This document shows positions 20,201 through 24,486 of a DNA stretch of 64,000 nucleotides, piece after piece (the stretch's first letter is position 1; the number at the start of each line of letters is the position of its first letter). Where the stretch lies: NCBI RefSeq assembly GCF_035594765.1, contig NW_026943824.1, positions 8,574,317 through 8,638,316 on the forward strand, read 5' to 3'. Under the pieces are notes generated by a model that was not told the DNA's origin, did no database searches, and worked only from the letters and a program-made list of their open reading frames with translations. The translations under genes were made by a program, and so were the position numbers. This stretch comes from Anolis carolinensis (Eukaryota).

Positions 20201-22144
20201 GACCCCTACTGAAACTGACAAAGGTGCCTCTTCTTAAGCAATACCTAAATGCATCATGATGATGTATCTGTTTGTGAATATCAAATGACTTAACACCAAG
20301 TAATAGTTATAAAGCCAGTTATGTTTTGCAGAAAACAGGATTATGTGATCATGCCTTCAGCATATTACAAGAAGTTTCTTGAATATTCTTCAAAAAGAAA
20401 TTAATTAGTGAAGACAGTTAACAGCATTGTCAGGATCTACACAATAAGCAGAGAAGAGATTTCCAGATAATTTTACTATCACAGCTCTATTAAGGAATAG
20501 TGCTTGGGAAGGCTATTTTTAGCCCCCAGAATTTCCAAACCATCAGAATGTGCAGTTGTTACCACTAAAAAATCTCACAGTGTAAACAAAGGCAGCTACA
20601 TTTAGAAATGACCCTTCAACAACAGCCAAAATCAGAGATACACGTCATGTTTATAAGTCCCTAAATTACTTCAGGAATGGTAGTATATGCTCACAGTAAC
20701 ATGCACAACAGGGTTGCACAGAACAGAAAGCAGGAATTTGGTGTTTTTTTTTTACCATGTGTAAATATGATGAAAAATTGATATGTACTACCATCACATG
20801 CATGAAACAGATCACAGTACTGCAGCATTCAAATACATCCCTGTAATATGATGTATATTCTATGTTAATTCACAAGTGATTCTACAGAGAGGGCAATCTA
20901 TGGCCCCACAGACATTTCAGATTTACCCATCCAGCCAAGCTATTGGGAAAAAAGTATGGAGGCTACTGCTGAAACCCCATTGAGGGCCATAAGCTCCCAC
21001 CTAATGATAGCAGGATGGGGTCCTAAAGACTGTTTTCCAGTCTCCAGTCATTTTGTAACCCCAATGTTATCCAAAAGGCTTGAAAAGCAACCAAAATATT
21101 TCCATAATATCTAACAGCTAAAAAGTATTCTGACATTTCACTGTAATGCTAACTTGGTAATGCTATTCAATCTCAATTGTCTAGGTTCTTAATAAAAACA
21201 CATTACCAAATAAAAATAATTAAAGTACTTCATCTTGGCACCTGGTGGATTTTAAAACAACCTTGCAGGGAATACATAAAATAATCATAATTAGCATTTC
21301 TGAACTACTGTGTTTTTACCTTCACTATTGCTTGCCAAAGACTGGCGAGTGCAAATGCTCGTATAGCTAGCAACCACTGAGTTATTTGAGGGTTCTTGAT
21401 TGTGTACTGTATGTTTGAAAGCATTTCCTTATATTCAGATGCATCTACTGAAGACATGAGGTTTAAGTAGTCAAGAAAAACTAATGCATTCTGGTTGTTC
21501 AGAAGTCCCATGTGATATTCACTGAGTGAAGCAGCAAGAATAGAGTTCAACTCTGAAGGCTGGATTTCATTGGAGTCTGGTCCCTCAAGAAACGCAAGGC
21601 GAACTTCATCCTCGATAACTCCCATTTCCAATTCCAACAGTTGTTGTTTTTGATTTAACTGGAGCTCAGACAGCCAGAAATGTGCAAAGTGAACAAAGTT
21701 GTCTCCAGAACAACTCCATTCCCCCATCTCACTAATGAGGTTTTGGGCTGTATCCAGCCAGCCCGCCACTGCAGTACTATCAAAATTATTAAAGTGCTTC
21801 TCAAATAGATCTTTTTCTGGGGAAAAAAGCACACCAAGTGATTCCTTGGAGAAAGCAACTCCACTTGCCCCTCCACTCTGATGGGGTGATGCTTTTTTGC
21901 CAATATGAGGCAGCGGGACAGCTTTAAAAAGAGAACAGTTCCTGATCTTGAGAGAGAAGAACTCCTTTTGCAAATGATTATTATCCACTTGAGAGCTTTT
22001 CACTAATGAACAGATATTTGGAAGATGAAGGATCTCATTCTGTTGATTCAGGGCATTTTTATGTAGCTGCTGATGTCCTAAATCATCTTCCTGTTCCATA
22101 TTAAAACAGATATGCATCATTCGCCTGTCCTCCAAGCTCTGCAT
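14052..22144 (-). CDS. FAM220A: FAM220A-family protein with C-terminal ankyrin repeats, 478 aa; join of 22144-21320, 18708-18608, 15748-15589, 15295-15115, 14221-14052
   Basis: All four introns are GT-AG with compatible phases (0,2,0,1); CDS is 1437 nt with no internal stop; first coding exon C-terminal half (EIQPSELNSILAASLSEY...VFLDYLNLM...EYKEML...LLAIRAFALA) matches recalled human FAM220A; syntenic position. Confidence 0.8.
15115..15295 (-). CDS. Ankyrin-repeat exon (DVNQASENGNTPLHAAVNTGKMHLVSLLL...DGATPLHFAIVYG)
   Basis: Long polypyrimidine tract + TAG acceptor, G|GTAATA donor; two canonical G-x-TPLH motifs. Confidence 0.9.
15589..15748 (-). CDS. Ankyrin-repeat exon (ALQAVQLGYPDVLDYLV...NRNLLFLATIYDQSKILDYFLEM)
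   Basis: TTTCTCCTCAG acceptor, GTCAGT donor; degenerate ankyrin consensus. Confidence 0.82.
18608..18708 (-). CDS. FAM220A-ankyrin linker exon (FYKTLVHTQQSSEQPDKSSVSANRKQSNEVVKE-R)
   Basis: TTCAG acceptor, AG|GTAAGC donor; phases 0/2 bridge the neighbouring exons. Confidence 0.72.
21320..22144 (-). CDS. FAM220A: FAM220/SIPAR-domain coding exon (275 codons; unspliced read-through gives 279 aa ending at 21305)
   Basis: Long ORF with FAM220A-like C-terminal motif; AAG|GTAAAA donor at 21320/21319. Confidence 0.88.
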
Positions 22145-22200
22145 TGTATTGAACCACAGTATATGGTAGAAAGCCTTTTAGTTGCAGCATGAATTATGAG

Positions 22201-24486
22201 TTAATGAATCTCAATATGAACCTGAAAAAGAGCATAAAATAAATTAATATATTAATATACACATTATTACCAGGTCCATAAAATGGGATCTCCATAATTG
22301 TAATCTACTAGGAGCATATCTGTTTTAGATAGAAAGTGATCCTTTTTATTATAAATCGGTTTGTTGGGCTAATTAAACACACACACATAAATCTATAGCC
22401 ACAATAGCCACCATTTCACAAAGATTTGTGTTATACACCCACCCTTAAGAATATCTGCACAATACTTTCAATCTTCACAACTAAATAAATGAGATTTTGA
22501 AGCTGCGAGTGTTGAATTCATGTTGTTACTAACAATGTCCTATAATAACTCTACTGAGTAATCAACTGCCATAATCTAAGTAAAGGGGTTTAAGACTATT
22601 GTTCTGTTCTAGCATACCTTACTTTCTTTTTAGAAGTGGAGCACTACAACTTACTTTTGTCCTTTACTTAAGTGAAGGATCTTTGCCCAACAAAACTGAC
22701 ACCAGAATTTTTGTTACATAACAATAGCTTACTTTAGCCAATAGGATACTAGTAGGTGATCTATGATGTCATAATCTGAACTCAAATAGAATATAGGAGT
22801 ACTGTACTCTCATTTTTAAAAGGAGTTTGCTGCTGGAGATGATAACGATAATATTTATTTTCCAATTTGAGGTTGATTTATAAATGAATATACAGTATAT
22901 GGTACTTGTCTGAATGAAGAAAACAGGAAATCTAACTTCCCAGATAATCTGGGATAAACAGAAAATCTGTTTCACGTCAGATGTATCTGTGAGGGTGGTG
23001 GAACAGAAAAAGGGCTTCCCAAGCAGATTTCAAAGCATGGGCTATGACATTTCCATTCTTCAAATAACCTAGACTAGAGCATACAATAATTTATAGATGA
23101 AAACCAATGCAAACTATTCCTGGAATCAAACTGGCAAGCAATGAAGTTGTTGCAACAAGGGAGTTTTGTATTCCCTGTAGTAAGTCCAAGATAGTGATAT
23201 GGTTGCAATTCTTTGGACAGTTGAGGTTTTTGAACCTTCTTCAAAAGCTGGTCCACATACAATTTGTTACAGTAATTCAATTTGGACGAAATCAATGTGA
23301 TCAGAATTGATGTCTCGGAACAGATGCAGCTGGTGGACAATATTTAACTGTGCAAATGCACTCCTAGCCACTGCTGGAACCTGAGCTTAGGTGCACACTG
23401 AAGTATTATCCCATCCGGGACAGGCTGAATACCTATCCCAGATCTCTTTCAAGGTGACCTGGGGCACCTCTAGCCTTGACTGGATTAAGTTTCAGTTTGT
23501 TTGCTCTCGTCCAGTGCATTACTTATACAAGACACTAGTTTAGGATAAAATCTTGGTCTGTGGAAGAATGGAGAAATAGCACTGGGTGTCATCTGCAAAT
23601 CGATGGCACCAAACCCTAGAACTCCAGACAAGCTCTCCCAGGGGTTTCACACAAATAGCCTAGGTAACCGAACTGAGCCCTGAGCTAACACTCAAAAGGT
23701 TGTACAGGAATTCCTCAGGACTACTTTCTGGGCTTACCTCTCAAGGAAGGAACAAAGTTAAACTCTGTCCCAACTCCCATTCCATGGACAACGGTATCAA
23801 AACCTGCCAAGATGTGTAGCATAACCAAAGGGATATACTTTATCTGTCTAGCTCCAAATGTACATCATCCACCAAGATGACCAAAGCTGTCTGTGTCATT
23901 GGCCAAAAAAACCAGATTCAGAACTCATCTCATCCAAAAGTCAGTGCTAATCAGGATAATCCAATAGTTTTGGGATAGGCAATTTGGTGCTAAATATTGG
24001 ACTATTGGATTATGACCTGTCAGGATCAAAGCCTATCGCGTAGCAGTTTCAGAGGTGTTCTTTTAATTTATTGGGTAGCTTAAACTGCTGAAGGGAAAAG
24101 GATGGGGCCTAAGACTGTTAGGAATGGTGGGAGTTGAAGTCCAAAACACCTGGAGGGCCCAGGCCTGTTTTAAAGTGTACTTCCAAAGAAATATAGGTCT
24201 CTTCTCCCTCACAGACCTCAAGGCCGAACTCTAGCGAGGCTTGTCTCCCTCCTGGTATGCCTCAAGCGCGGCCCCGCCCCTTTTCCCTCACCTGCAGCCG
24301 GACGTTGAGCATCATGGAGGCCACGACGTAGAGGTAAGGGAAGTTGATGCGCAGCTTCCAGGCCAAGTCGAAGAAGATGAGCAGCGTCCGCGTGAGGCCC
24401 TTGCAGAAGACCCCGTAGGAGCGCGCGGCCACGGACTGCGAGAGCCGGGCGGACAGCGCGGAGATGAGCGCCGCCACAGCAGCCAT
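22201..24486 (-). CDS. SMIM10L3: Small integral membrane protein 10-like microprotein (SAGSIN1/SMIM10L3), 71 aa; join of 24486-24292 and 22221-22201
   Basis: [65 protein letters not shown] + VHIEIH*; CAG|GTGAGG donor and TTTTTCAG acceptor; near-identical to the recalled human protein. Confidence 0.9.
23040..24040 (-). mobile_element. Ancient degenerate L2-clade LINE RT fragment in the SMIM10L3 intron
   Basis: [13 protein letters not shown] resembles L2 SRLDYCNSL; FADDTQ-like segment near 23580-23600; many stops. Confidence 0.55.

Follow-up and report, generated by a model that had tools for sequence, protein, structure and literature searches.

Two reading frames on a probably bicistronic mRNA: the SMIM10L3-FAM220 gene of Anolis carolinensis and its likely deep history

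A 64,000-nt stretch of the Anolis carolinensis genome (NCBI RefSeq assembly GCF_035594765.1, contig NW_026943824.1, positions 8,574,317 to 8,638,316 of the forward strand; hereafter the window, to which all coordinates refer) carries on its minus strand a gene whose mRNA holds two coding open reading frames (ORFs). The first encodes the 71-amino-acid (aa) microprotein SMIM10L3, and the second (ORF2), fully spliced, a protein of 478 aa in which a FAM220 part is followed by ankyrin repeats. The pairing is real, known in outline and of unexpectedly deep history: human and mouse are already known to have the two-ORF mRNA, the 478-aa protein is already modelled in RefSeq, and from the sequences compared here the unit likely dates to the common ancestor of vertebrates and lophotrochozoans. 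The locus is probably best read as a bicistronic unit in which ORF2 is translated mostly by reinitiation and RNAs polyadenylated in intron 3 lack the ankyrin exons.

Gene structure

The coding part of exon 1 (24486-24292, donor CAG/GTGAGG) was joined to the acceptor at 22221, so that exon 2 opens with the 21 nt that encode the final six residues of the microprotein, VHIEIH, and the stop codon TAA; 56 nt separate this stop from the FAM220 ATG at 22144. The arrangement had been proposed in a preliminary description made from the letters of the window alone; it was confirmed in the sequence and by the exon 1/2 joint in three of four RNA-type runs (see below). Beyond exon 2, ORF2 spans four further introns (junctions 21320/18708, 18608/15748, 15589/15295 and 15115/14221). 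The microprotein matched DUF4560 (PF15118) with E 3e-34 and 117 bits (Pfam cut-off 27), ORF2 matched FAM220 (PF15487) with E 1e-59 and 202.8 bits, above the Pfam cut-off, an Anolis carolinensis entry matched at 100%, and the whole ORF2 product was 92.5% identical to an annotated Anolis sagrei protein, also of 478 aa. The gene was assigned to SMIM10L3, as against SMIM10, L1, L2A and L2B, by the position of its final 21 nt in the FAM220 exon and by the adjoining RAC1. Annotated proteins in which SMIM10L3 is fused to FAM220 (two snakes and the Komodo dragon; P0020, P0022, P0166) were rejected as likely gene-model joins: VHIEIH is dropped in them, and no such joint is listed in the anole runs.

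Transcript forms

Four runs from four studies (X1, X7, X10 and X15, of 24 listed) were compared over 11500-24740. The exon 1/2 joint was present in three of the four, so that contigs bridge both ORFs there; the exon 3/4 joint was likewise seen in three, the exon 2/3 and exon 5/6 joints in one each and the exon 4/5 joint in none, the adjoining repeat having been skipped by the search. An alternative first exon was looked for, and among the joints listed in all four runs (60 loose contig ends excluded) none led from another first exon into exon 2. One transcript with two coding ORFs, as first described, was supported. In X1, one contig covered exon 2 but lacked the joint to exon 1.

Contigs joining exons 1 and 2 continued unspliced beyond the exon-2 donor, for 2,639 nt in X7 (record 26) and for 1,738 nt in X10 (record 15), with most of intron 1 uncovered and no exon 2/3 joint listed in either run; X15 contained both an exon 2/3 joint and intron-2 contigs. 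In X15, 17 untemplated T (plus strand) before 17249 mark a poly(A) tail 18 nt after AATAAA, at a place where the genome beyond is not A-rich. Since contigs run on into intron 2 and a tail is attached at 17249, RNAs exist with the microprotein stop in their last exon; in RNAs ending in intron 2 or 3 either this holds or one junction remains. The anole locus yields short RNAs, with an ORF2 of 279 or 309 aa, in addition to the long ankyrin RNA, and annotated protein models ending at these two points were found in many reptiles.

Other X15 contigs stop at 19368, 18812 and 15416 (minus strand), their last 15-21 letters unaligned; ATTAAA or TATAAA precedes two of these ends, and all three may be further intronic poly(A) sites. 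In Rhineura (P0056, P0058) and in many mammal and bird isoforms exon 1 is joined to other downstream exons, with a C-terminus that differs from VHIEIH; none of these joints occurred in the four anole runs.

Conservation and the human counterpart

Over five species pairs (microprotein residues 12-71), the microprotein was 80-93% identical to the lizard sequence, compared with 45-86% for ORF2; some microprotein entries end in other C-termini, which lowers the figure. FAM220-ankyrin proteins of about 480-540 aa were found in squamates, turtles, four marsupials, salamanders, amphioxus, molluscs, a brachiopod, annelids and cnidarians. The four marsupial proteins (478-480 aa) keep the ankyrin part, and the earlier proposal that mammals had lost these exons was accordingly abandoned. 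An eagle cluster contains 264-aa forms that end at the exon-2 boundary. No full-length protein from a teleost, frog, shark, bird or placental stood among the best 120 of 361 matches of a word-limited search, by which loss is not proven. The microprotein ranges from sharks and teleosts to mammals, and was also found in lamprey and hagfish and, weakly, in a spider (E 1e-4).

According to the title of the report by Ueda et al. (2009), two ORFs on one mRNA reportedly give acrosomal and salivary-gland proteins. [quoted passage not shown] In the human entry of Dataset EV1 (PMC13303939), where the transcript is among 250 candidates, the microprotein consists of 186 + 21 nt and FAM220A is a single 780-nt block that begins 60 nt further on; both ORFs lie on 79 of 82 long reads, both are counted positive by Ribo-seq (scores 11.4 and 6.9), and PhyloCSF is +31.1 for the microprotein and -23.2 for FAM220A. 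With one PhyloCSF-positive ORF, the human pair would presumably miss the last filter of that study, going by the portion of the paper used. Conservation of both ORFs, as that portion asks, was found in the lizard and the invertebrates; in human, ORF2 fails on PhyloCSF. Literature searches, mostly outside subscription papers, turned up no account of the pairing in invertebrates, of the ankyrin form or of a poly(A) switch, and the gene is unnamed in the main text of PMC7530721 and PMC4383229.

The identities and the PhyloCSF values bear out the preliminary description in that the microprotein is, among vertebrates, better conserved than FAM220. Its suggestion that the upstream ORF may be the principal product fared less well, as ORF2 is well conserved in lizards. 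The distance to human FAM220A arises because ORF2 decayed in placentals, and, judged by sequence conservation, human divergence does not make the lizard ORF2 a minor product.

Pairing in invertebrate loci

Metagenome contigs were scanned with the FAM220 core, which gave 31 invertebrate loci. With a profile built from vertebrate microproteins only, a same-strand upstream ORF was detected in five of the 31 (E 7e-13 to 2e-8; best E of reversed controls 0.5). All five exceed the DUF4560 cut-off of 27 bits (27.6-42.3), third codon positions change far more than second ones, the microprotein end is uninterrupted by an intron, and the stops lie 66, 86, 167, 136 and 72 nt ahead of the ORF2 ATG. Ankyrin exons, and introns with them, follow in all four positive contigs of sufficient length; FAM220 (PF15487) scored about 182 bits in L003 and L004. 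A 37-row tree, built from 24 named proteins and 13 of the 31 loci, placed L004 and L005 with the bivalve Dreissena (100/99); L002, L003 and L013 grouped with annelids at 94/96, which is under the starred mark. Identity to the lizard in the positive loci was 33-47% for the microprotein and 31-39% for ORF2. As the same partner, the same order and a similar gap recur in vertebrates, bivalves and annelid-like animals, one origin before their split is the simplest account.

Eight coral loci (L006-L012 and L014) showed no upstream microprotein, five of them with 1.1-7.6 kb upstream. In all eight, a CAAAATGGCG element, which we take to be of the YY1 or TISU (translation initiator of short 5′ UTR) type, opens an ORF of 6-14 codons 43-99 nt ahead of the FAM220-ankyrin ATG, and two spliced contigs start six bases before the ATG of this element. 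The coral sequences suggest that FAM220-ankyrin either was earlier alone or has lost its partner. The annelid-like locus L001, in which no microprotein was seen, has just 348 nt upstream, with a likely intron. Seventeen loci (L015-L031) belong to a long-branch animal group with a divergent FAM220-ankyrin in which the same exon lacks the conserved N-terminal start motif; they were for this reason treated as uninformative.

Start codons and the route to ORF2

The first ATG of the microprotein has T at -3, as the preliminary description had it, but G at +4. Leaky scanning, which had been drawn from this weak context, was not supported. Four ATGs precede the FAM220 ATG in the lizard, namely the first one and three more: an in-frame Met-Met pair near the microprotein end, the second with A at -3, and an ATG 10 nt past the microprotein stop that opens a 29-codon out-of-frame ORF crossing the FAM220 start. 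In the invertebrate loci 3-9 ATGs lie between the two starts, 1-4 of them with a purine at -3, and three of four complete microprotein starts have A at -3, so that the weak context is not conserved there. With this many ATGs ahead of ORF2, pure leaky scanning is a poor route. In the Komodo dragon (P0008/P0009) the homologue of the +10 ATG is the annotated, in-frame FAM220 start and the usual start is absent, which may reflect either a true shift of the start codon from one ATG to the other or an error of assembly.

Reinitiation is reported, in the part of PMC6614817 consulted, to work best at about 78 nt spacing and to be possible after 126 codons; the lizard spacer is near this length, which argues for a restart on ORF2 after the microprotein stop. 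Ribosomes would make the microprotein from the first ATG, and some would restart on the FAM220 ORF after the spacer. In lophotrochozoans the restart might be aided by a spacer motif, TCCRTCCA, found in all five invertebrate spacers 23-50 nt ahead of the ORF2 ATG; only seven copies occur in 167,529 nt across all loci, and none of 2000 shuffled sets shared any such 8-mer. Neither a MAFFT alignment of six spacers, which was not useful, nor single-sequence folds, which had no common structure, added to this.

Cleavage in intron 2 or 3, versus splicing through to exon 6, would set whether ORF2 bears ankyrin repeats, and the short FAM220A of placentals and of the birds found here would be the short isoform made permanent. 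A wider scenario is put forward tentatively and is rather doubtful as a whole: the unit would have been bicistronic since the last common bilaterian ancestor, with TCCRTCCA as a reinitiation element of cellular origin at which the ribosome is held once it has read an ORF of 50-70 codons; an intron and the intronic poly(A) switch would be vertebrate additions, and the short form would have become fixed in placentals and in birds separately.

Several points weigh against these proposals. The runs are assembled contigs, taken to be RNA by guess, and a contig is not a single molecule, so isoforms cannot be ranked by them; the tail at 17249 was seen in one of the four runs only, and scarcity of the long form, if real, could itself result from decay of the mRNA. 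The ATG at +10 could catch restarting ribosomes in the lizard. The evidence from invertebrates is genomic contigs, the five positive loci represent two lineages only, and 26 of the 31 loci had no detected microprotein (8 coral, 1 annelid-like, 17 long-branch). The motif was noticed post hoc, a single-pair shuffle test was not significant (1404-1661 of 2000 shared some 8-mer), and the lizard spacer matches it at five of eight positions, in a comparable place. The spacer of L013 holds AATAAA and three spacers hold donor-like GTRAG. The placental truncation point was taken from the human ORF coordinates, without placental FAM220A sequences.

Alternative explanations

The last-named spacer signals would fit two tightly packed genes, with ORF2 transcribed from its own start site or, for instance in testis, from a different first exon, and with TCCRTCCA serving as a promoter or splicing element. 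The genomic nature of the invertebrate evidence, the X1 contig and the coral RNAs, which appear to begin just upstream of ORF2 (two spliced contigs, same motif), could be read in the same way; a poly(A) signal is absent from four of the five invertebrate spacers. In lizard and human, however, the last 21 nt of the microprotein sit in the ORF2 exon, the exon 1/2 joint recurs with no other joint into exon 2 among those listed, and the human long reads of Dataset EV1 (PMC13303939, as far as used) hold both ORFs, both with ribosome signal. Two separate genes are therefore improbable.

By the exon-junction rule, a stop followed by a junction more than about 50 nt further downstream leads to nonsense-mediated decay (NMD). 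In the long form the microprotein stop is 881 nt or more before the four downstream junctions and so falls under this rule; in RNAs that read through exon 2 to the intronic poly(A) site it does not. Coupling of the two proteins by NMD, with ORF2 fed by leaky scanning and its translation rescuing the mRNA, had been inferred earlier from these four junctions and the T at -3. Introns lie downstream in the invertebrate loci as well, and in p53 reporters mRNAs can escape NMD through reinitiation (PMC6614817, part consulted). The preliminary description had itself named polyadenylation before the downstream junctions in most transcripts as evidence that would tell against coupling, and such RNAs exist, although the contigs do not give their share; as the unspliced short RNA has the microprotein stop in its last exon, exon-junction NMD cannot couple the proteins there. 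The ATGs to be skipped, one with A at -3, the lack of a kept weak context in invertebrates and the persistence of the pair in human, where ORF2 is one block (Dataset EV1, PMC13303939, in the portion used), likewise leave coupling with little credence. Under the favoured reinitiation with intronic polyadenylation, only the long ankyrin isoform would be a possible exon-junction NMD substrate, unless its ORF2 is translated, and decay would tune FAM220-ankyrin and not the microprotein; the 3′ UTR of about 5 kb in the short RNA might invite junction-independent decay.

That both products are subunits of one complex, placed on one mRNA for stoichiometry as in MOCS2A/MOCS2B, is very unlikely: the pairing is kept across vertebrates, bivalves and annelid-like animals and both proteins diverged alike, yet the microprotein is highly conserved even where ORF2 is truncated or unconstrained, it has four human paralogs, corals carry ORF2 without a microprotein upstream, and the title alone of the 2009 report is said to place the two mouse products in different tissues.

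Predicted protein structure

An AlphaFold model of ORF2 (overall predicted local distance difference test score, pLDDT, 76) consists of 108 disordered or low-scoring first residues, a helical FAM220 core and ankyrin repeats; ankyrin proteins were the only matches in a fold search with the full model. The core of 165 residues (about 111-285 of ORF2), conserved from cnidarians to marsupials, is predicted to be all-helical with pLDDT 93. It had no Foldseek match at E 0.001 and a best Z of 4.8 to solved structures, by which a new fold is not thereby shown; the ESM Atlas held no look-alikes of either protein at 0.9 or above. A predicted complex of the axolotl microprotein with axolotl FAM220-ankyrin 118-484 scored 0.00, computed without alignments and with an uncertain partner fold, which is evidence neither way.

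Features and surroundings of the gene

The features are collected in Table 1. An Rfam scan of 17000-24700 gave one weak match only, far below threshold. A short high-copy repeat in intron 1 (24115-24161) draws thousands of contigs.

Table 1. Positions of the SMIM10L3-FAM220 features in the window
Feature	Position	Strand	Remarks
CpG island and putative promoter region round exon 1	24201..24700	.	GC 0.65-0.67, CpG observed/expected 0.94-1.04; contigs extend to 24538 at most
SMIM10L3 codons 1-65, exon 1	24292..24486	-	PF15118; joint to exon 2 in 3/4 runs
SMIM10L3 codons 66-71 and stop codon, opening exon 2 (21 nt)	22201..22221	-	equal 21-nt block in human
Inter-ORF spacer, 56 nt	22145..22200	-	human 60 nt; invertebrates 66-167 nt
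Out-of-frame ORF, 29 codons, begins 10 nt past microprotein stop, overlaps FAM220 start	22101..22190	-	
FAM220 domain, codons 1-275, exon 2	21320..22144	-	donor read-through gives end at 21305, 279-aa short form
ORF2 exon 3	18608..18708	-	donor read-through gives 309-aa form; joints in RNA-type contigs
Poly(A) signal (AATAAA, 17272-17267) within the intron, followed by a poly(A) site near 17249	17249..17272	-	1/4 runs (X15)
ORF2 exon 4, ankyrin-like repeats	15589..15748	-	alone below Pfam cut-off; joint in 3/4 runs
ORF2 exon 5, ankyrin repeats	15115..15295	-	PF00023, E 2e-12
ORF2 exon 6, last ankyrin repeat and stop	14052..14221	-	joint in 1/4 runs

By their motifs, the neighbours are presumably RAC1 (26740 onwards), a minus-strand lipase and, near 8.8 kb, a cytohesin-like first exon. 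The SMIM10L3-FAM220 gene (24486, minus) stands head to head with RAC1 (26740, plus), their CpG islands about 1.6 kb apart. A read-through model in Tiliqua fuses FAM220-ankyrin with cytohesin-3, in keeping with the anole synteny. Near the window end, 62098-63060 holds a reverse-transcriptase-like reading frame, which we take to be of the CR1 type.

Comparison with known systems

If a short conserved cis-element assists a restart behind a long first ORF, this would resemble the termination upstream ribosome-binding sites (TURBS) of caliciviruses and influenza B virus, where, as presented in the part of PMC5972666 used, a UGGGA core lies upstream of a near-overlapping stop and start. Unlike these, the lizard has no UGGGA core (no TGGGA in the upstream ORF or the spacer), stop and start are 56-167 nt apart (56 nt in the lizard), and the invertebrate motif stands after, not before, the stop. 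The short motif offers a direct handle on the restart of translation in cellular mRNAs whose first ORF is long.

The MOCS2A/MOCS2B dicistron likewise has a small ORF before a large one, kept from protostomes to vertebrates ('highly conserved' in the section of PMC4528330 consulted); its products are subunits of one enzyme, whereas no shared function is known for SMIM10L3 and FAM220. Few bicistrons are known at a depth such as this pairing, likely as old as bilaterians, would have.

In STREMI-SLC35A4, MIURF-MIEF1 and PYURF-PIGY, as well as in ASDURF-ASNSD1, a conserved functional upstream-ORF protein is also followed by a second conserved ORF on one mRNA, according to the portion of PMC13303939 used. 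STREMI-SLC35A4 is dated there to jawed vertebrates, with an intronless second ORF acquired by retroposition; SMIM10L3-FAM220, in contrast, reaches lophotrochozoans, and its intronless human ORF2 is a cut-down multi-exon gene. An origin by retroposition ('gene symbiosis'), with a second ORF intronless from the outset and joined later to an older gene, does not agree with the introns that ORF2 has in lizard, bivalve, annelid-like and coral loci. The pair is a counter-example to taking intronless second ORFs for retrocopies.

The closest likeness is human and mouse SMIM10L3 (SAGSIN1)-FAM220A (Acpin1), which shares with the lizard the ORF order, the 21-nt tail in exon 2 and a spacer of 60 versus 56 nt. 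The lizard ORF2 differs in its four additional exons with ankyrin repeats, in its length (478 versus 259 aa), in being clearly conserved and in having short and long RNA forms, while human ORF2 is one block with negative PhyloCSF in the dataset extract (PMC13303939). Human FAM220A, seemingly intronless and unconstrained, would then be the remnant of an ancient protein that had ankyrin repeats and an uncharacterised helical domain, and FAM220 function would be better studied on the full-length form. If this is true, the human 'uORF' (upstream ORF) has outlived its decaying host protein.

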